Under the pieces are notes generated by a model. It was given only the letters and a program-made list of their open reading frames with translations. It was not told the origin of the DNA and did no database searches. Positions 1-24,281 of a stretch of DNA of 24,281 nucleotides are shown in pieces. The translations under genes were made by a program, and so were the position numbers. Positions within the stretch are counted from its first letter, which is position 1. Each line of letters begins with the position of its first letter. The stretch lies in the IMG/VR virus record IMGVR_UViG_2675903394_000002, positions 1-24,281 of that record; one strand, written 5' to 3'. Origin of the DNA: a virus. Its lineage: Duplodnaviria; Heunggongvirae; Uroviricota; Caudoviricetes.

Positions 1-3371
<3,371 letters not shown>

Positions 3372-3397
<26 letters not shown>

Positions 3398-3917
3398 TCA
3401 GCAACCCCGGTATCAGTTCATCCAGCGCGGCTGCTTTGTTCATGGCTTTGATGATATCCCGTTTCAGGAAATCAACATGTCGGTTTTCCAGTTCCGGAAA
3501 ACGCCGCTGCACCGACAGGGGGATCCCGTCGAGAATACTGGCAATTTCACCTGCGATCCGCGACAGCACGAAAGTACAGAATGCGGTTTCCACCACTTCA
3601 GCGGAGTCTCTGGCATTTTTCAGCTCCTGTGCATCGGCCTGCGCACGCGTAAGTCGATGGCGTTCGTACTCAATAGTCCCTGGCTGGAGATCTGTCTCGC
3701 TGGCCTGCCGCAGTTCTTCAACCTCCCGGCGCAGCTTTTCGTTCTCAATTTCAGCATCCCTTTCGGCATACCATTTTATGACGGCGGCAGAGTCATAAAG
3801 CACCTCATTGCCCTTGCCACCGCCTCGCAGAACGGGCATTCCCTGTTCCTGCCAGTTCTGAATGGTACGGATACTCGCACCGAAAATGTCAGCCAGCTGC
3901 TTTTTATTGACTTCCAT
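3372..3917 (-). CDS. Nu1: Terminase small subunit gpNu1 (181 aa)
   Basis: The 181-aa ORF MEVNKKQLADIFGASIRTIQNWQEQGMPVLRGGGKGNEVLYDSAAV... matches lambda Nu1 and lies immediately next to cos. Confidence 0.95.
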
Positions 3918-4180
3918 TGTTCATTCCACGGACAAAAACAGAGAAAGGAAACGACAGAGGCCAAAAAGCTCGCTTTCAGCACCTGTCGTTTCCTTTCTTT
4001 TCAGGGGGTATTTTAAATAAAAACATTAAGTTACGACGAAGAAGAACGGAAACGCCTTAAACCGGAAAATTTTCATAAATAGCGAAAACTCGCGAGGTCG
4101 CCGCCCCGTAGCCTGCCGGATCGCTGGAAAGGACCCAGCTACTAGCGAATGCCAGTAGCCAAGGTGGGCTGCGGGCTTAA
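3918..4180 (-). other. cos site (cosB, cosN, cosQ); the cosN 12-nt cohesive-end sequence is at 4095-4106
   Basis: The reverse complement of 3900-4106 reads GGGCGGCGACCTCGCGAGTTTTCGCTATTTATGAAAATTTTCCGGTTTAAGGCG..., the lambda left end up to the Nu1 start. The sequence beyond 4106 matches the lambda right end (cosQ side). Confidence 0.85.
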
Positions 4181-4181
4181 T

Positions 4182-4427
4182 TTAAAGCGGTGTGATTTGC
4201 AACCATTCAGACGCACTAATCTCAAAGCGACGTCCGTTAGACAACTCGATAATCACGGGTAATTCACCTAGCTCCAGCCAGGCGTTTTTTTCCGTTGGAA
4301 AACTAACAGTAGAGATCTGGTAATCCAATACGCTTTCAGCCAGTCGGCAACTTTTAAACACATCACCAAGGGCGGACGCGAAGAATACATTTAGCTCATA
4401 TTCAATCTGCTCTTTAGCAGCTGTCAT
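4182..4427 (-). CDS. Hypothetical protein (81 aa) between cos and the lysis genes
   Basis: ORF in the ORF track; occupies the lambda bor/right-end accessory position. Weak ribosome-binding site; no family recognised. Confidence 0.4.
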   Translation of the reverse strand: MTAAKEQIEYELNVFFASALGDVFKSCRLAESVLDYQISTVSFPTEKNAWLELGELPVIIELSNGRRFEISASEWLQITPL

Positions 4428-4559
4428 GTTTCTGTCTCATCAACTTGAATAGGGTAATCAGGAATGGATGCGAACTACAGGTCGTCTGCACCATCTTTCA
4501 GATTAAAGCAGCGCCACATTTCGTCAGGGTCAGTATTAGCCGACATCTCGTGCACCTGA

Positions 4560-4670
4560 TTAATGTTTGGCGATATTACAACAGGCGTTCAATGAATGCA
4601 TATTGTAAGCCTCTCGCTCAGGAGAACAGAATCGTTCCATTATTGAATTAAATTTCTGCGACTCTTTCAT
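4560..4670 (-). CDS. Small hypothetical protein (36 aa, MKESQKFNSIMERFCSPEREAYNMHSLNACCNIAKH)
   Basis: Strong ribosome-binding site AGGAGG five nt upstream of the ATG at 4670. Part of the 103-aa ORF-track entry 4560-4871; only the distal 36 codons have a good start context. Confidence 0.3.
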   Translation of the reverse strand: MKESQKFNSIMERFCSPEREAYNMHSLNACCNIAKH

Positions 4671-4692
4671 CACAACCTCCTGACAAATATAC

Positions 4693-4712
4693 CGTGCGAC
4701 CGTGGTCGCACG
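4693..4712 (-). terminator. Perfect 8-bp stem-loop (cgtgcgac-cgtg-gtcgcacg), possible terminator or attenuator downstream of the Rha-like gene
   Basis: Perfect inverted repeat seen directly. On the minus strand it is followed by GUAUAUUUGU (moderately U-rich). Confidence 0.3.
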
Positions 4713-4912
4713 CTCCTGAATACATGCCCTGTTTCTTCCACCCTCGCACAGGACTGGCGAGCATGAGGGACAAACCCGCGAATCATTAGCGCGGTAAAAA
4801 CCCGGTGTGCATCGTTTTTGATTATTTCCGCACACTCGCGCAGAAGGAATTCCCCGTCGGGCTACGGTCATGGTTAATGCGGGAATACAGCGACGATGCA
4901 GCGCAAGATGTG

Positions 4913-5461
4913 TCAGGCCTGAATACCTTTATCGAATCCCGGTAATAAAAACTGTCCCTGTCTCTCCAGACGTTCCAGCTTTGCAAGCAATTGAGGTTTT
5001 TTCGTTCTTCCCCAGCGATTGAGCAGACGGCCTGACATGCTGGCGACATCCTTCTCTTTCATGTACTCCAGCATTACGGCGTTACGTTCTGCTTCATAAC
5101 TTTCGCTGAACTTACGGAGTTCTGCTGACATCCAGTTAAACGCATTGATATAGGCTTCTTTAACAGCATCGGCTTTTGCCCCGTTAAATCCCATCACCAG
5201 CATAACGAAGCCGCTAAAATCCATGCGGTAGTAAATCTGCTTCTTATCGAAAATCCCTAAGTCATTGATTTTCTCGACGGCCCAAAAATGGGTTGTCGAG
5301 AATTCCTCAGAACATCGCAAACATTTAATAGCCCTAATCACATGCTGATGGCGTTTACCAAATGCCCTGGCAATCTGGAAGGTGTCAGTTACCGGTTGAC
5401 CTTCTGCTGCGGTAACTAACTGGCGAAAATCGAAGTCATGATTCGCAATTAATTCATTCAT
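4913..5461 (-). CDS. Rha-family phage regulatory protein (about 182 aa from the internal start MNELIANHDFDF...)
   Basis: Contains the segment GKRHQHVIRAIKCL and the motif FVMLVMGFNGAKADAVKEAYINAFNWM, typical of Rha proteins (Rha consensus-like FxGxKAxxxKxxYIxxFNxM). The ORF track gives 4913-5530; I chose the start at 5461. Confidence 0.7.
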   Translation of the reverse strand: MNELIANHDFDFRQLVTAAEGQPVTDTFQIARAFGKRHQHVIRAIKCLRCSEEFSTTHFWAVEKINDLGIFDKKQIYYRMDFSGFVMLVMGFNGAKADAVKEAYINAFNWMSAELRKFSESYEAERNAVMLEYMKEKDVASMSGRLLNRWGRTKKPQLLAKLERLERQGQFLLPGFDKGIQA

Positions 5462-5679
5462 GGCGTAGCCTGCTTCTTTGAAATGAACCTTTGCCGCACA
5501 GGAAACCAGCCCACCGAGGCTCGCCAGCACTAACTGGTATCCTCAAAGGCCCATTCCAAAGGGTCAGGTTCGGTGGTTATTGTGCGCTGCGGTGCGCGGT
5601 GAAATATCTGTACAAAAACGCCCCGCTTCTGCGAGGCATTTTCCTGAAAGTCACTTGTTAAATTTCAGCGAAGTTAAAA

Positions 5680-6147
5680 TTATTTTAAGCACTGCATCCT
5701 GATGTATTCCTGCAACGTCCTTAATGCGGCTTGATCACTGATGATTCCATCTCTGATACCGAGAACGTTTCGTCCAGCAACTGGAGAGAGTTCGACGGTG
5801 GCATCATTGCCCATGCCGGAGGCGCTGGAGGTTTTGGCTGAGGATGGCACAGGACATTTGCCTTTGACGAGCACCCGACCACCATTATTAAGCTTGCGCC
5901 GAAGAGCATCATTTTCAGCTTTCGCATCAGCTAACTCCTTCGTGTATTTAGCATCGAGTGCAGCAACATCACGCTGACGCACCTGCATGTCAGTAATTGT
6001 CGCGTTCGCCAGTTTCAGTTCTCTGGCATTTTTGTCGCGCTGCTCTTTGTAGGAGATGGCGTTATCACGGTAATGATTAACAGCCAACGACAGGCAGACG
6101 ATGATGCAGATAACCAGTGTGGAGATAATCGTGGTAACTCTGCTCAT
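5680..6147 (-). CDS. Rz: Spanin inner-membrane subunit (i-spanin) Rz
   Basis: [55 protein letters not shown]... closely resembles lambda Rz: N-terminal TM helix plus coiled-coil. The start overlaps the endolysin stop (ATGA). Confidence 0.9.
5721..5927 (-). CDS. Rz1: Spanin outer-membrane lipoprotein subunit (o-spanin) Rz1, embedded in Rz in the +1 frame
   Basis: [21 protein letters not shown]...[16 protein letters not shown]: lipobox (VVGC) followed by a proline-rich segment, lying entirely inside Rz, as for lambda Rz1. Confidence 0.8.
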
Positions 6148-6641
6148 TGTTGCCCCCATAAACAGACTTCACGCTCAATCTCACGGCGAGTCATCAGCCC
6201 TTTCCATTGCTTACCGCCAGCGTATGTCCAGCGCCGTAGCTGATCACATGCGCCTTTGATATCGCCCTGGTTTATTTTGCGAAGAAGCGTCGATGTTCTG
6301 AAATTGCCAGCGCCCACGTTGTAAACGAACGAGTAAAGAGCGCCGCGCGTTGTTTCCGGTATATCGACTTTGATGTACGGGTTAATTTGTCTGGCGACCG
6401 TGGCAAGGTCTTTATTCAGGAGGGCTTTGCATTCTGCTTCGGTATACGTTTTACCTGGTATGATGTCTTTTCCGGTGTGTCCGTGACATACAGTCCATAC
6501 ACCAACAATATCTTTGTATGGTATGTAGCTGACACCTTCCAGACCATCGTTACCACTTGGACCAGTGATGAGCACAGACGCTATGGCAACAGCCCCACCA
6601 CCAATAGCAGCAGCAATAGCCTTGCGTAATGATGGCGACAT
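6144..6641 (-). CDS. R: SAR endolysin (lysozyme, phage 21 R-type, 165 aa)
   Basis: N-terminal Gly/Ala-rich signal-anchor-release helix ([18 protein letters not shown]) followed by a T4-lysozyme-like domain; the sequence closely resembles phage 21 R as I recall it. Confidence 0.9.
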
Positions 6642-6856
6642 TATTCACCTCTCGCAGCCTTACGCTTATCTTCTTTAATCTTGAAATAAAGGTTTGTCAG
6701 ATACGTCAGCAAGCCAAATACCAGACTACCCAGCACACCTATTGCCGCCCACTGTGAGGGCGTGACTTTATCGAGCAACTGTAAAAACCAGTACCCGGCA
6801 CTACCTGCTGAGGTGCCATAGGCGACACCCGTTGTTAACTTATCCATGGATTTCAT
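6641..6856 (-). CDS. S: Pinholin, phage 21 S-type (71 aa) with dual-start motif MKSM
   Basis: [71 protein letters not shown]: two TM helices, resembles S21. Ribosome-binding site GAGGTGGAG upstream of the start at 6856. The ORF track extends to 6910. Confidence 0.85.
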
Positions 6857-7123
6857 AACTCCACCTCGCAGATGCGGGTGCAAATTGAGAGAATAAAAAA
6901 TCCCCGACAATTCCAGATGTCAGCGGCCTTAAATATAAAAACAGGCAAATGCCGAGGCCCGCTAATCGTTGCCACTATGAGCGCTGCGACGCCATTTCAT
7001 CCAGACAAGCTATCAGATACGGAAGCCGTGCTGCCGCTTTTACGGCATTGTATTCACTATACTTATCTATTCTGATATCGTTAAATCAACAGAAATAACC
7101 AATATCAGAAGGAACGCATTAAT

Positions 7124-7672
7124 ATGGCGAACAATCTTTTTTATACACTTGACAGGCAGCGCACACTGAAGTCAGGCATGAAAATTGAATTAGCAGAACC
7201 GTACTGCCCAATCGTTCCACTTCAGGCTCATACGAGCTCATTGTTTTCCGACGGTGTATCCCGGCATGCAAATAATCTTTTTTTCAACTACCACATAAAC
7301 CTCGTCAGCTCAGACGAACGATTTGGAGCAATAATAGAAATACTACTGGAAGAACGAAGGAAATCACACTTCCCTGAAAAACCATCACGCTTCCAATCAA
7401 TTTTTGCATGTGAGTCTGTAAAAGAAACCGCCTGGTTCAGAGGCTTTTCAAAATCCCCACTTGACACCCCAATATTTCAAGTCAGCTCATCGTCGAACTA
7501 TCATAGAGGTGATATGAATTTGTTAAATCTGAACTGCTCCCCAGTAGAAGTATCTCAGAGGCTGGATCTTTACTGGAAGGGTGAAACAACACAGATTTAC
7601 GAAGGGTATCAACCATTCTGGGAAGTGCTCATTCCATTGCCAGTTATTATTGGTGAAAGAATTATCGAATAA
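7124..7672 (+). CDS. Hypothetical soluble protein (182 aa), first gene of the inverted insertion between S and Q
   Basis: ORF on the strand opposite to the late operon in an AT-rich insert. No TM segments and no family recognised. Confidence 0.6.
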   Translation: MANNLFYTLDRQRTLKSGMKIELAEPYCPIVPLQAHTSSLFSDGVSRHANNLFFNYHINLVSSDERFGAIIEILLEERRKSHFPEKPSRFQSIFACESVKETAWFRGFSKSPLDTPIFQVSSSSNYHRGDMNLLNLNCSPVEVSQRLDLYWKGETTQIYEGYQPFWEVLIPLPVIIGERIIE

Positions 7673-8014: not shown

Positions 8015-8899
8015 ATGAAATGCATCCGAAAACATCCAGCAATAGCTTATACAGTAATTATTTTAGTTTTTGCCTTAATATACAATTTCACTTGGAGCGT
8101 CAATCCAGATTCTTTCATTAAAAACAACGTTCTCAACTCTACACCTGTATATGATGCCGTTAATTTAGCATATGCGAACAATGAGGTAAAAAAAGAAGCT
8201 CCTGTCAGTGTTTCGAGGGAAGTATTTGCAGAGCAAATTTTAACACTTACAAATCAATTCAATAAGATAATAATTGAAAACTTAGAACTTGAAAAAACAT
8301 TATCTCAGCAGCAAGAAAAATTAAAACAAATTAGTGAAAGACAATCAATAAAGTGGGGCGAAAACACCAAAAAATACATAGCAGACAGTTTGAAAGATTT
8401 ACACAAAACGCTTATCACTAAAAATAGTGAACGTACTGCCATAGCATCTTTAAAAAACAAAACAAATGAAAGTCAGATTAACACTATGCTGGCCGACAAA
8501 GATGAAGAAATAGCCAAAATAAACCTTGAAATAGCGTATAAAGAGTATGATGCTAATGTCTATATCTTATCTCATGTCGGCGACTTTAACGATCCAATAA
8601 TCGTTAATGAGCTTGACGCAATCAATAAAGAAATTGAGAAAACAAGAACAAAAATAATAAACAACAAAAAGAAAATAATGGAGATAAGGAATAAATCTCA
8701 ATCTATGCTGGAGAAACTCAAAAAAGATGACCTTAACTTTTTGGATTTCTTATTTTATAGCATAGGAATATCTACAACGACCACCTTTGGTGATTTGTTA
8801 GCAAATTCAAGACTTATCAGACTGATAGTTTGCGTGCAACTTTTACTATCAATTATAGTTTTAGCTAACGTAACTCAAAGATTTTTATCAAAAAAATAA
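8015..8899 (+). CDS. Hypothetical membrane protein (294 aa): N-terminal TM helix, Lys/Glu/Asn-rich coiled-coil domain, C-terminal potassium-channel-like pore helix/filter/TM module
   Basis: Hydrophobic segment AIAYTVIILVFALIYNFTW at about aa 9-27; heptad-like K/E/N/I-rich middle; C-terminal NFLDFLFYSIGISTTTTFGDLL (nt 8726-8794) followed by TM helix LIRLIVCVQLLLSIIVLANV. Very AT-rich codon usage. Confidence 0.7.
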   Translation: MKCIRKHPAIAYTVIILVFALIYNFTWSVNPDSFIKNNVLNSTPVYDAVNLAYANNEVKKEAPVSVSREVFAEQILTLTNQFNKIIIENLELEKTLSQQQEKLKQISERQSIKWGENTKKYIADSLKDLHKTLITKNSERTAIASLKNKTNESQINTMLADKDEEIAKINLEIAYKEYDANVYILSHVGDFNDPIIVNELDAINKEIEKTRTKIINNKKKIMEIRNKSQSMLEKLKKDDLNFLDFLFYSIGISTTTTFGDLLANSRLIRLIVCVQLLLSIIVLANVTQRFLSKK

Positions 8900-10984: not shown

Positions 10985-11782
10985 TTACTCTCTGGAAGCT
11001 TTTCTTATCTCTCTTGGTGTTATATTAAAACGATTATGAAATCTTTCTGTAAAACGAGAAGGACACTTATAACCATTTTCTCTGGCAATCTCGCTTATAG
11101 GTTTTACCGTCGTTTGTATAGCAGACAACGCATTATTTAACCTCACATCGTCCAGTATACTTTGGAAACTTACCCCCTCGCTTGCTAGACGGCGATGTAA
11201 TGTAGAAACAGAAATGTAGAGATATCGAGCAACCTTGTTTGCTGTCCATTTTGTGCCGGGTTCGGATAGCAGCAGGTTATAACAACGACTTATCAATGAT
11301 TGTTTACTATATGATAAAAGTAAATGATTAACATGATTCACTCCTAACGAAAGTAGAACGCCCATTGCTAAGTGCTCCTGAATTTTAGTTGAGAAGCCTC
11401 GGGAAACAGATGTTTTTAGTTGCTCCCAACAATATATTAACTCAGGATTCTGAGGTAAAAAGAAACTTGTTTTGTTACGTATTTGATCAGTTACCGTATA
11501 AAGTTTTTGGAAACTCTCAATTAAATCAATGGGTAAGTAAAGCATTTCTGCAAGATAAAGCCCTGCTTCAGGATAATTCTCAATATAAAATTCATAACCA
11601 CAAGGAAATAATATTATTTGATTATTATCAACAGTTAAAGTATGCGTCTCCCAATTGATAACTTTCTTTCCCTGACGGATACGACACAAAGCTGGCATAA
11701 GAGGCTTAACCCTATGAATCTCATGATGTTTATGCATCCGTATTTCTTCGATCTTTAAGTTAGTCTTACCTCTTGCCAGCAT
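10985..11782 (-). CDS. ybcM: AraC-family transcriptional regulator (265 aa)
   Basis: C-terminal AraC-type HTH region (…[41 protein letters not shown]…); size and position match DLP12 ybcM. Confidence 0.85.
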
Positions 11783-12807: not shown

Positions 12808-14334
12808 TTAGAAATAAATCTCACCATCAACCATATATTTGAGAGCACTTATCGCCTGCTGGGCGGATATTACTTTCATTAAAGGATAGTGTTTAAAAAC
12901 AATGCCATTCATAAAATAGATACCACAGGTTTTATTATCCGTATTAATTATGATTTTTTCGAATGTTTTATAGGCAAGTGTACGGCATAACTCTCGTCCA
13001 TTTTTACTGGTTAAGTCAATAGCATAAAAATCACTGAATGAATTTACACCTTTACTCTTCAAAGTTTTCAATGATACCGAAGCCCTTCGTAATTCCTTAT
13101 CTAATAGTCTTATTTTCTCTGCTATAGCGGTAACTTCAGGCGCGACAGACAATGCAACGATTAAATTATTAATTTTCATCTGAAGCTCAATAATTTTTAA
13201 CTCTAAAGTTTCATTAGCATCTTTCTTGTTTTCAACTGGTTGAATTTTGCTACAATTAAAAAGCAATTCATTAATGATATTATAATCAACCAAATCTCTT
13301 TTTATTGATGGCCTGTCACATCGATGTAATCTTCTCATCGGACAAACATAATAGCCATGCAAACTTCCAGATACCGCATGAACAATCATGGTATTACCAC
13401 AAGCCTCACACTTCATAACTGTTCGAAGTAGATTTATTAGCATAGGATTCTTGCTACTATTGCTAATACCAAAAGGTGCCAACCGAATTTCCTGTACAGC
13501 GTAAAACAAATCATCTGATATAACTCTGGGATAATAGCCAGCGATTTCACTTATCCCTTTCCCTCTTGCACGATATGAAGGTACGCATATACCTATCAGA
13601 GCTTTATTCGCTAATAATTTTTCAATTACAGAAGGTCCCCATGCACTTTCTTTTCCTGAGAAATTCTTTACAGCATGATCATTTAAATACTTGGCTATTG
13701 CATTCAATGAGCGCCTTTCCATCCTGAGTTTAAAAATTAGCTCAATAGTTTTCACCCTGTCGGGGTCTGGAACAAAAGCCGTTCTTTTGTCATCTAAGGA
13801 GAGCCATCTCGGACAAGACGCCGTCATAATCGTACCTGATTCCATTGCATCCTGCCGTTTTTTCTTCCATGATAATTTAACCCGACTTGACTTTATCTCG
13901 CTTTCTTCATTTGCCCTTTGTGCTATAAGTATGGCTTTTATTAATGAATATGGCTCATTCAAAGAGTCAATATTATAGACTGTATTGTCGCAAAGAGTTA
14001 TAACATCAATACCGTGATTCAAAATCAATTTCAGACGTTCAATCGCTTCACCGACTTTTTCTCTTGAAAGTCTGTCCAGACTTTCAACTAACAATGTAGT
14101 TCCTGGCAATATATAACCATGCTCTATAGCATCTAAAAATTCCGAAAAAGCTCCTGATTGTGCATGCTTTCCTTTGAATGCACTTAATCCTAAATCTTCA
14201 TATGTTATGGTATCAAGATAATAATCACTATTTACCTTTAACCATTCAGCAATAAGTCTTCTCTGTCGGTTTAATGAGTCACCAGACATCTGACCTGGTG
14301 ATGAAAATCGCATATATGCTATGGCTTTTTTCAT
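12808..14334 (-). CDS. ybcK: Large serine recombinase (508 aa)
   Basis: N-terminal resolvase-type catalytic motif AYMRFSSPGQ and a Cys-rich region (CPRW…C…CEACG…CPMRRLHRC) typical of large serine recombinases; size matches DLP12 YbcK. Confidence 0.85.
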   Translation of the reverse strand: MKKAIAYMRFSSPGQMSGDSLNRQRRLIAEWLKVNSDYYLDTITYEDLGLSAFKGKHAQSGAFSEFLDAIEHGYILPGTTLLVESLDRLSREKVGEAIERLKLILNHGIDVITLCDNTVYNIDSLNEPYSLIKAILIAQRANEESEIKSSRVKLSWKKKRQDAMESGTIMTASCPRWLSLDDKRTAFVPDPDRVKTIELIFKLRMERRSLNAIAKYLNDHAVKNFSGKESAWGPSVIEKLLANKALIGICVPSYRARGKGISEIAGYYPRVISDDLFYAVQEIRLAPFGISNSSKNPMLINLLRTVMKCEACGNTMIVHAVSGSLHGYYVCPMRRLHRCDRPSIKRDLVDYNIINELLFNCSKIQPVENKKDANETLELKIIELQMKINNLIVALSVAPEVTAIAEKIRLLDKELRRASVSLKTLKSKGVNSFSDFYAIDLTSKNGRELCRTLAYKTFEKIIINTDNKTCGIYFMNGIVFKHYPLMKVISAQQAISALKYMVDGEIYF

Positions 14335-22919: not shown

Positions 22920-23262
22920 GGCCTGTCAGTTTCTTAAGATATCCAGACCAACCGCCACCAACTGGATACGAACAGGCCGCCTACAGGCAACACGTAAAGA
23001 TCCAACCAAGCCAAAATCTCCTTACCTCACAACACGGCAAGCCTGCATTGCGGCGCTTCAGTCTCCGCTGCATACTGTCCAGGTGAGCGCGGGTGATGGC
23101 ATAACAGAGGAAAGAAAATGTCACTCTTCCGCAGAAATGAAATATGGTATGCCTCGTATTCGCTCCCGGGCGGGAAACGAATTAAGGAATCTCTTGGCAC
23201 AAAGGACAAGCGGCAAGCTCAGGAGTTGCACGACAAGCGAAAAGCAGAACTCTGGCGAGTAG
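22891..23262 (+). CDS. xis: Excisionase-like DNA-binding protein (HTH; about 124 aa if it runs to the stop at 23262)
   Basis: [31 protein letters not shown] is an excisionase/AlpA-type HTH; it lies immediately upstream of int and overlaps it by about 145 nt. Confidence 0.5.
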
Positions 23263-24281
23263 AAAAGCTAGGGGATTTACCTGATGTCACTTTTGAAGAG
23301 GCCTGCCTAAGATGGCTTGAGGAAAAAGCTGATAAAAAATCTCTCGATTCAGATAAAAGCCGGATTGAGTTCTGGCTTGAACATTTTGAGGGTATAAGGC
23401 TTAAAGATATCTCGGAGGCAAAGATTTACTCTGCTGTAAGCAGAATGCATAACAGAAAGACGAAAGAAATATGGAAACAGAAAGTTCAGGCCGCCATCAG
23501 GAAAGGTAAAGAACTGCCTGTTTATGAACCAAAGCCAGTATCAACTCAGACAAAGGCAAAGCATCTTGCCATGATAAAGGCCATTCTCCGTGCTGCAGAA
23601 CGCGACTGGAAGTGGCTGGAAAAAGCGCCTGTCATCAAGATACCAGCGGTCAGAAACAAGCGAGTCAGATGGCTGGAAAAGGAGGAAGCAAAACGCCTTA
23701 TTGATGAGTGCCCCGAACCACTGAAATCTGTCGTCAAGTTTGCGCTGGCAACTGGTCTGAGAAAGTCGAACATCATAAATCTGGAATGGCAACAAATCGA
23801 CATGCAGCGACGAGTTGCCTGGGTGAATCCAGAAGAGAGCAAATCAAACCGCGCCATTGGTGTGGCGCTGAACGATACCGCCTGTAAAGTGTTGCGTGAT
23901 CAAATAGGCAAGCATCACAAATGGGTGTTTGTACATACCAAGGCGGCTAAGCGAGCAGATGGAACATCAACGCCTGCGGTCAGGAAGATGCGCATCGACA
24001 GCAAGACATCATGGCTATCAGCTTGTCGTCGTGCAGGAATTGAAGATTTCCGTTTCCATGACCTCAGACACACCTGGGCAAGCTGGCTGATTCAGTCAGG
24101 CGTCCCATTATCAGTGCTTCAGGAAATGGGCGGATGGGAGTCCATAGAAATGGTTCGTAGGTATGCTCACCTTGCGCCTAATCATTTGACAGAGCATGCG
24201 AGGAAAATAGACGACATTTTTGGTGATAATGTCCCAAATATGTCCCACTCTGGAATTATGGAGGATATAAAGAAGGCGTAA
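23118..24281 (+). CDS. int: Tyrosine integrase (DLP12 IntD-like, 387 aa)
   Basis: [36 protein letters not shown]... with C-terminal catalytic residues (…[13 protein letters not shown]… …MVRRYAHL…); stop at the last three bases of the window. Confidence 0.95.

Follow-up and report, generated by a model that had tools for sequence, protein, structure and literature searches.

The window, a 24,281-nt stretch of viral DNA, is an integrated lambda-like prophage with its late operon on the minus strand. The features within and around the interval considered here, listed from the lysis genes toward the terminase genes, are as follows.

6641-6910, minus strand: holin gene (S), a lysis gene
6144-6641, minus strand: endolysin gene (R), a lysis gene
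5680-6159, minus strand: Rz/Rz1, lysis genes (S, R, and Rz/Rz1 together span 5680-6910)
4913-5530, minus strand: gene for a Rha-family/ORF11CD3 regulator (Pfam PF09669 and PF10549, PHROG 518, TIGR02681)
4724-4904, minus strand: conserved, putatively structured non-coding element of ~180 nt, part of the late operon
4693-4712, no strand: perfect palindrome CGTGCGAC-CGTG-GTCGCACG, with an 18-bp core at 4694-4711
4560-4681, minus strand: AGGAGG ribosome-binding site (RBS; 4681-4676) and 36-aa open reading frame (ORF; 4670-4560), the 5' stump of a phrog_2571-type cargo gene
4136-4614, minus strand: rare cargo module of ~480 bp between a junction at 4615 and cos-proximal sequence, found in 2 of 5426 E. 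coli genomes
4182-4427, minus strand: ORF81, for an 81-aa acidic protein (pI 4.4), a late-operon accessory gene
4095-4106, minus strand: cosN 12-nt cohesive end GGGCGGCGACCT (late strand), read directly from the sequence and bounding the region
3372-3917: Nu1, a terminase gene
1472-3397: gpA, a terminase gene

With the lysis genes on one side and the cohesive end and Nu1/gpA on the other, the interval occupies the accessory position at the right end of a lambdoid prophage, as an earlier note made from the letters of this DNA had proposed. The sequence GGGCGGCGACCT at 4095-4106 is identical to the lambda cohesive end. The Rha-family gene is the last gene before the RNA element, and its stop codon lies ~10 nt upstream of it. 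Elsewhere, the window encodes lambda O/P, a cI-like repressor, and a tyrosine integrase (23118-24281). The stretch of the prophage from the replication genes to the late region also contains genes for a large serine recombinase with Resolvase, Recombinase, and Zn-ribbon domains (12808-14334, minus strand) and an AraC-family regulator (10985-11782, minus strand). Just upstream of the holin gene, on the plus strand and thus opposite to the late operon, are a gene encoding a DUF2441 protein (7124-7672) and one encoding a 294-aa protein with no Pfam match (8015-8899), and the Q-S moron site may have received both as cargo.

The interval is a patchwork. In a megablast search of 5426 complete E. coli genomes, window positions 4101 to 4614 were rare, being covered in only two, whereas positions 4615 to 4933 were found in 3178 genomes and in 261 phage records. 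The BLAST similarities end in a nested fashion at 4615, 4693, ~4715, and ~4730, and in pairwise BLAST the similarity to the N15-like phage YDC107_1 picks up again at 4136-4101.

The most widespread component is the ~180-nt element at 4724-4904, which the earlier note overlooked, having read through it as part of a mechanical ORF. BLAST places the element in 3178 of the 5426 complete E. coli genomes, in 428 phage records, including lambda, and in 627 plasmids. The lambda copy has an inferred position of about 46868-47034 (46.86 to 47.03 kb), between bor and lambdap78. A full copy in K-12 MG1655 (579010-579176; L266 3511-3677) occupies the borD-ybcV spacer of DLP12, where no feature is annotated. 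Stx phages also carry the element; P22 and N15 do not, and hence it is not universal. Its setting is fixed: across 138 loci with 141 copies, all matches to lysis genes lie upstream of the element and all matches to terminase genes (lambda Nu1/gpA, 933W type, and HNH plus TerS types) lie downstream of it, always on its own strand and without exception. The small terminase gene starts 290 to 2175 nt after the element, and bor, where present in these loci, is upstream of it on the opposite strand. A search with nhmmer added a copy that is ~60% identical by eye, located in an enterobacterial prophage just before a distant homologue of ORF81. A contig scan with the G+C-rich 16-mer CCGTAGCCCGACGGGG gave only chance matches in high-G+C genomes, and the corresponding loci, L135 to L254, were disregarded.

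Two ORFs cross the block, and both were rejected as genes. The 103-aa ORF has a match to phrog_6954 ("Rz-like spanin"), but copies of the element carry 1-nt indels that break the frame and many lack the ATG, so the element is not coding. On the plus strand, an ORF that some genomes have annotated (for example, WP_171002536.1) meets a TAG at 4787-4789 in the window. In public annotation, the block appears as an "Rz-like spanin" in phage PA2 (L256 2535-2738, which underlies phrog_6954) and elsewhere as a "hypothetical protein" on either strand (L003 1561-1737; L002 165-347; window ORF 4560-4871). These protein annotations are probably wrong.

The comparison of copies points to four helices.

4809-4899, minus strand: H1, a long interrupted hairpin with a 7-bp outer stem, an 11-13-bp inner stem, an asymmetric internal loop, and an apical sub-hairpin
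4776-4794, minus strand: H2, a short middle hairpin (CCGCG/CGCGG) with a freely variable loop and moderate support
4757-4761 with 4743-4747, minus strand: H3, a possible pseudoknot stem that overlaps H4, the 3' domain being 4726-4761
4748-4754 with 4726-4732, minus strand: H4, a 3' hairpin with a near-invariant purine-rich GGAAGAA in its loop

From 63 distinct copies, RNAalifold predicts H1 and H4, and we added H2 and H3 to this model before pairs were counted. Among these copies, 97.8% of cells are paired, a share that falls to 31 to 63% if the partners are slid. Double changes are seen in 62 cells, compared with 19 in shuffles, and none of 500 shuffles reaches 62, although many of the 63 copies are closely related, so that the cell counts overstate the number of independent events. 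In six diverse copies, 15 of the 35 H1/H4 pairs show compensatory changes, compared with 5.2 ± 1.8 in shuffles (0 of 500 as high). The L013 copy, ~60% identical by eye, supplies most of the 13 H1 pairs with two-sided changes in this six-sequence alignment.

Support differs among the helices. H1 is paired in 99% of cells of the 63 copies; lambda shows a compensatory C-G to G-C change within it, and two Stx-phage copies (L257 and L258) have lost the apical part of H1 and kept the stems. The H2 stem is kept across differing loops, with one sequence type having CUGUG/CGCAG, and is paired in 90% of cells, the alignment being shifted for some types. At pair 158-180 of H4, UA is found 34 times, GC 23 times, and GU 3 times, and the H3 pairs change from CG to GU (14) and from CG to AU (9), with UG, UA, and CG also seen. 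Both H3 and H4 covary in most sequence types and are interleaved in the manner of an H-type pseudoknot whose third loop, GGUGGAAGAA, is rich in purines. The lambda/DLP12 type shows no evident H3, and a naive search for the stem (S1) did no better than shuffled flanks; the H3/H4 pseudoknot is thus tentative. Folding stability of the window copy is no better than that of dinucleotide shuffles (z = -0.13), and therefore covariation alone carries the case for structure. With compensatory substitutions and strand-specific G.U pairs in H1 and H4, the element bears the sequence hallmarks of a structured RNA.

Pairing is also asymmetric between strands: 99.1% on the late strand compared with 88.6% on the opposite strand, with 240 G.U and 10 A.C cells. 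This excess points to an RNA that is part of the late transcript. The same figures bear on whether the 180-bp block might instead be a feature of the DNA with no RNA function, such as a homology "linker" maintained because mosaic phages recombine frequently, a protein-binding site, or a cruciform site. Mosaic junctions do cluster at the edges of the element, N15-like phage-plasmids carry a cargo gene between two copies, a fragment of the element has moved with iss/bor onto ColV plasmids, and H1 is an inverted repeat at the DNA level too. However, a ratio of G.U to A.C of 24 to 1 on the late strand is not produced by a double-stranded DNA site or a cruciform, compensatory changes keep the helices in a copy with only ~60% identity, and the orientation of the element relative to the late operon is invariant. 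A linker would leave the strand-specific covariation unexplained, and we consider a purely DNA-level role improbable.

The block also recurs in other contexts. In N15-like phage-plasmids, two copies flank a phrog_2571-type cargo gene, as in YDC107_1 (L004, 2168-2347 and 3101-3289), and further flanking pairs occur in L016 (5058-5246 and 6000-6178) and L026 (10785-10861 and 12450-12638). N15-type palindromes lie at the boundaries of the duplicated copies, giving a cassette-like layout that may reflect unequal recombination. On the ColV plasmid pVM01 (L263), the H1 part at 2501-2596 is ~170 nt upstream of iss (2039-2329), a homologue of bor. The H1 part is found beside iss on ~520 conjugative IncF-type plasmids, where it looks like a lambda-derived relic.

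Searches for a known family gave no candidate. Rfam 15 had no match at the gathering threshold anywhere in the window, and searches of the element and its lambda copy at E ≤ 10 gave noise-level snoRNA matches only. The prophage small RNAs (sRNAs) AgvB, AsxR, Esr41, and STnc100 were considered and rejected, being in Rfam without a match to the element, as were PasA to PasD, with PasB mapping between tail genes I and J. The records inspected contain no RNA annotation of the element, and searches of the open literature (borD, ybcV, and rzoD as well as the literal sequence) returned no paper on it or on the borD-ybcV spacer. The element is credible as a new family of structured RNA.

Published data from K-12 bear on its transcription. 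Term-seq detected a bicyclomycin-sensitive (Rho-dependent) 3' end at 579345 on the strand of the element (PMC7815308, supplement file 2). This position is ~170 nt downstream of the K-12 element, and a late-strand transcript therefore crosses the element in K-12. In lambda, deletions of lambdap79 are viable, indicating that the region is at least partly dispensable there (bioRxiv 10.64898/2026.09.04.749371).

One way to read these results is that the late transcript, or its 3' untranslated region, gives rise to a free form of the element with a role in trans, be it that of a regulatory sRNA, of a sponge for a protein, or of a decoy for a host defence. Lambdoid phages often have prophage sRNAs (PMC4104026; bioRxiv 10.64898/2026.05.13.724894), and the purine-rich loop GGAAGAA is almost invariant. 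The accessory region also hosts anti-defence genes, with an Acb2/Tad1-like gene in the slot of L007, and lambdap79 triggers the Vulcan system (bioRxiv 10.64898/2026.09.04.749371). Against this, the element matches none of the known prophage sRNAs, whether those in Rfam or PasB, which lies elsewhere, and the features expected of an Hfq-dependent sRNA did not emerge. There is no promoter-like site in 3900-5700 and no clear terminator within the element; in uninduced EPEC, the genes flanking the spacer are nearly silent, and the portion of the EPEC Hfq RIL-seq supplements covered holds no entry for this spacer. An action in trans thus has a low probability in our judgment.

We favor an action in cis. 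Because the element has a fixed strand and a fixed place between lysis and packaging genes, is without promoter-like sites nearby, and contains a two-turn interrupted hairpin, we infer, partly by analogy, a processing or stability signal that acts on the late transcript. H1 would be a processing site, a 3'-stabilizing site, or both, and would separate or stabilize the lysis and packaging parts of the message. RNase III cleavage at H1 is only an analogy of shape. That 4724-4904 represents an undescribed family of late-operon RNAs, with lambda and DLP12 among its members and a specific job at the lysis/packaging boundary, is to us slightly short of an even chance. Such a job would be to have the 26-kb late transcript processed or cleave itself, to control terminase and cargo expression, or to act as a decoy.

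Beyond the element, at 4693-4712, is the perfect 8-bp hairpin that the earlier note had described, at the place it gave. The pattern occurs once in the window, compared with 0.01 occurrences expected by chance. On the late strand, its 18-bp core, GTGCGACCACGGTCGCAC, is identical at 18 of 18 positions to the N15 centromere sites IR1 and IR4, and the palindrome conforms to the consensus GTGCGACC-NN-GGTCGCAC of IR1 to IR4. The sequences of these four sites have been published, and N15 SopB binds them (PMC7205306, Table 4). The N15 genome carries four copies of the palindrome, of which IR4 lies between the late accessory genes and cos, and N15-like phage-plasmids have several copies per genome. 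Here, there is a single palindrome in 24 kb, not several dispersed copies, and no homologue of a cognate Sop protein or protelomerase was found among the ten large ORFs of the window that were scanned. In 22 of the 141 related loci, the palindrome occurs in 34 places with differing flanks, usually 3 to 6 nt after the RNA element. Its center (4701-4704) is inverted among copies, the late strand reading CCACGG in the window and CCGTGG in others (L003, L004, L008, and L010 compared); the differences among N15 IR1 to IR4 are likewise confined to the central two bases.

As judged from its sequence, the palindrome is an orphan N15-type centromere-like site in an integrated prophage and is thus already known as a sequence. 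The simplest account of its origin is recombination with an N15-like phage-plasmid. With no cognate SopB among the window ORFs scanned, its role would go no further than that of an RNA hairpin or weak terminator, or of a sink for SopB if such a plasmid were present.

The emphasis could be reversed, with the palindrome serving mainly as an RNA hairpin or intrinsic terminator that bounds the RNA element and insulates the cargo gene, the match to N15 being historical. A scan for terminator patterns flags it (8-bp stem, six G-C pairs, tail GTATATTTGT), the N15 record annotates IR4 as a putative rho-independent terminator, and the palindrome follows the RNA element by 3 to 6 nt in ~20 loci. However, the U-tract is weak (tail GUAUAUUUGU) and differs between contexts, and the three terminator-like sites in the 1.8 kb scanned are as many as expected from shuffles (2.3 ± 1.4). 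Q-modified polymerase, which reads through terminators in the established biology of lambda, would also pass through this one. We regard a mainly terminator-like role as rather unlikely.

Next to the palindrome is the 36-aa ORF, which is where the earlier note had placed it, with its AGGAGG RBS 5 nt before the ATG at 4670. In frame, it makes up the last part of the mechanical 103-aa ORF at 4560-4871. When aligned, a 286-aa gene of E. coli EC12 and a 198-aa gene of YDC107_1 both begin at the position of this ATG. In pairwise BLAST, the homology to these longer cargo genes is limited to 4700-4615, comprising the hairpin, the RBS, the ATG, and 18 codons at 87 to 88% DNA identity, and the sequence past 4615 is unrelated to them. 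The N-terminal PHROG match is weak (phrog_2571, E = 0.041), and in place of a full-length phrog_2571 cargo protein of ~200 to 290 aa, there are 18 homologous residues and a stop after 36 codons. Since only the hairpin, RBS, ATG, and 18 codons match and everything beyond 4615 is unrelated, the ORF is a gene stump at a recombination junction at 4615 rather than an independent gene family. The strong RBS belonged to the lost cargo gene, and the stump may still be translated.

The alternative put forward in the earlier note was that the interval holds two independent small protein genes, of 81 and 36 aa, and an anonymous hairpin, equivalent to bor or ybcV/ybcW. Both ORFs are intact, the 36-aa ORF has a near-ideal RBS, and it is intact in L001 and in L008 to L012 as well, so that a micropeptide could be made. 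Those loci are 95 to 97% identical in DNA, however, so intactness tells little, and homologues exist only for the first 18 codons, where a gene of 198 to 286 aa begins. The hairpin has a known identity as N15 IR1/IR4, and the conserved 180-nt block is left out of such an account, which we find decidedly improbable. Between the stump and ORF81, in the rare module, there is a further ORF of 23 to 26 aa (4475-4555, minus strand; MSANTDPDEMWRCFNLKDGADDL from an internal ATG).

ORF81, the other small ORF named in the earlier note, is present at 4182-4427 on the minus strand and is of a different nature from the stump. It ends 75 nt before cosN, and RefSeq lists the equivalent ORF as a hypothetical protein (WP_000122986.1). 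The earlier note had recognized no family for it and had named a lack of conservation in related prophages, together with a lack of any translation signal, as grounds for dismissing it. Profile searches agree with the first point, finding no match in Pfam, PHROGs, NCBIfam, or PADLOC, and related prophages do conserve the ORF. Ten homologues, 72 to 99% identical, are all 81 to 82 aa long, with an almost invariant C-terminal half. The dN/dS value is 0.25 when the 72%-identical copy is compared and 0.20 when a closer one is. Among 1.84 billion representative proteins, a profile search turned up only three further small relatives (82 to 87 aa); two immediately precede terminase genes, which differ considerably in type, and one is among head genes. 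The AlphaFold model is confident (pLDDT 83.6) and has an alpha+beta fold in which the helix at the N terminus packs against a small sheet. Searching the PDB by sequence gave nothing below E = 0.16, and Foldseek found no neighbor at E ≤ 0.001 in the PDB or BFVD. Relationships to lambdap79 (no BLASTP alignment), to P22 Orf80 (by comparison), and to Bor (PF06291, Lambda_Bor) or DUF1398 (YbcV) proteins (no Pfam match) were considered and rejected.

Because the homologues are equal in length, dN/dS is ~0.2, and distant phages have the gene in the same pre-terminase slot, ORF81 is a real, late-transcribed accessory gene under purifying selection. It makes up a new small family of a known sort, the late-operon accessory genes. 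In L007, a metagenomic phage with the 72%-identical homologue, the same lysis-terminase interval encodes an Acb2/Tad1-hairpin-family protein at 4979-5272, and this family is a known class of anti-defence sponge. Lambdap79, for its part, triggers the Vulcan defence system (bioRxiv 10.64898/2026.09.04.749371). ORF81 would be a late-expressed moron, most likely coding for a host- or defence-modulating protein; such a role is only a guess from the position of the slot, made because the slot holds the Acb2/Tad1-like gene and lambdap79 elsewhere.

Taken together, the interval is proposed to be a mosaic right-end accessory region, a Q-dependent stretch of the late operon between lysis and packaging. 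Transcription would pass through the ~180-nt RNA element, the N15-type palindrome, the RBS with its 18-codon stump, and the ORF81 module, in that order. We think it reasonably probable that this combination of a mosaic slot, a cis-acting RNA element, an orphan N15-type palindrome, a gene stump, and an ORF81 moron is the best explanation of the whole. Of the earlier reading of the interval, the accessory slot and the ORF81 gene stand; the 36-aa ORF as a gene and the hairpin as an anonymous one do not, and 4724-4904, brought out by homology and covariation, had been missed.

Lambda and K-12 are among the most closely annotated genomes, yet a 180-nt element with conserved helices is unannotated in both. 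Its presence in more than half of the complete E. coli genomes points to an unstudied step in the handling of the long late transcript. ORF81 would add a small conserved family to a slot in which defence-related phage genes are now being found, and the orphan N15-type site suggests sequence traffic between integrated prophages and phage-plasmids and could affect plasmid incompatibility.

Several known systems resemble parts of this interval. H1 resembles T7-type RNase III processing hairpins and intercistronic mRNA stabilizers in being an interrupted hairpin of ~20 bp that has an asymmetric internal loop and lies between functional blocks of a long phage transcript. Unlike the T7 sites, H1 has a further sub-hairpin at its apex, and two other conserved hairpins come after it; there is no sequence similarity. 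The prophage sRNAs (AgvB, AsxR, Esr41, STnc100, and PasA to PasD) are likewise non-coding RNAs at conserved positions in lambdoid prophages; they differ in being short Hfq-binding RNAs, encoded either between tail genes or downstream of PR'/Q.

The N15 IR sites share an identical core with the palindrome, and N15 IR4 is in the equivalent slot, from the late accessory genes to cos, but N15 has four dispersed copies and its own SopAB, whereas here a single copy is found in an integrated prophage. The phrog_2571-type genes of EC12 (286 aa) and YDC107_1 (198 aa) share the hairpin, RBS, ATG, and 18 codons; their other 180 to 268 codons are missing here, with unrelated sequence instead after 4615. 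A further parallel is the right-end moron region of lambda and DLP12 (bor/borD, lambdap78/ybcV, and lambdap79/ybcW), which likewise lies between Rz and cos and has cargo that behaves as a mosaic in the same way. ORF81 is unrelated to Bor, DUF1398 (YbcV), and lambdap79, and the Rha-family gene here replaces bor, whereas the RNA element is common to all three, lying between bor and lambdap78 in lambda and in the borD-ybcV spacer in DLP12.
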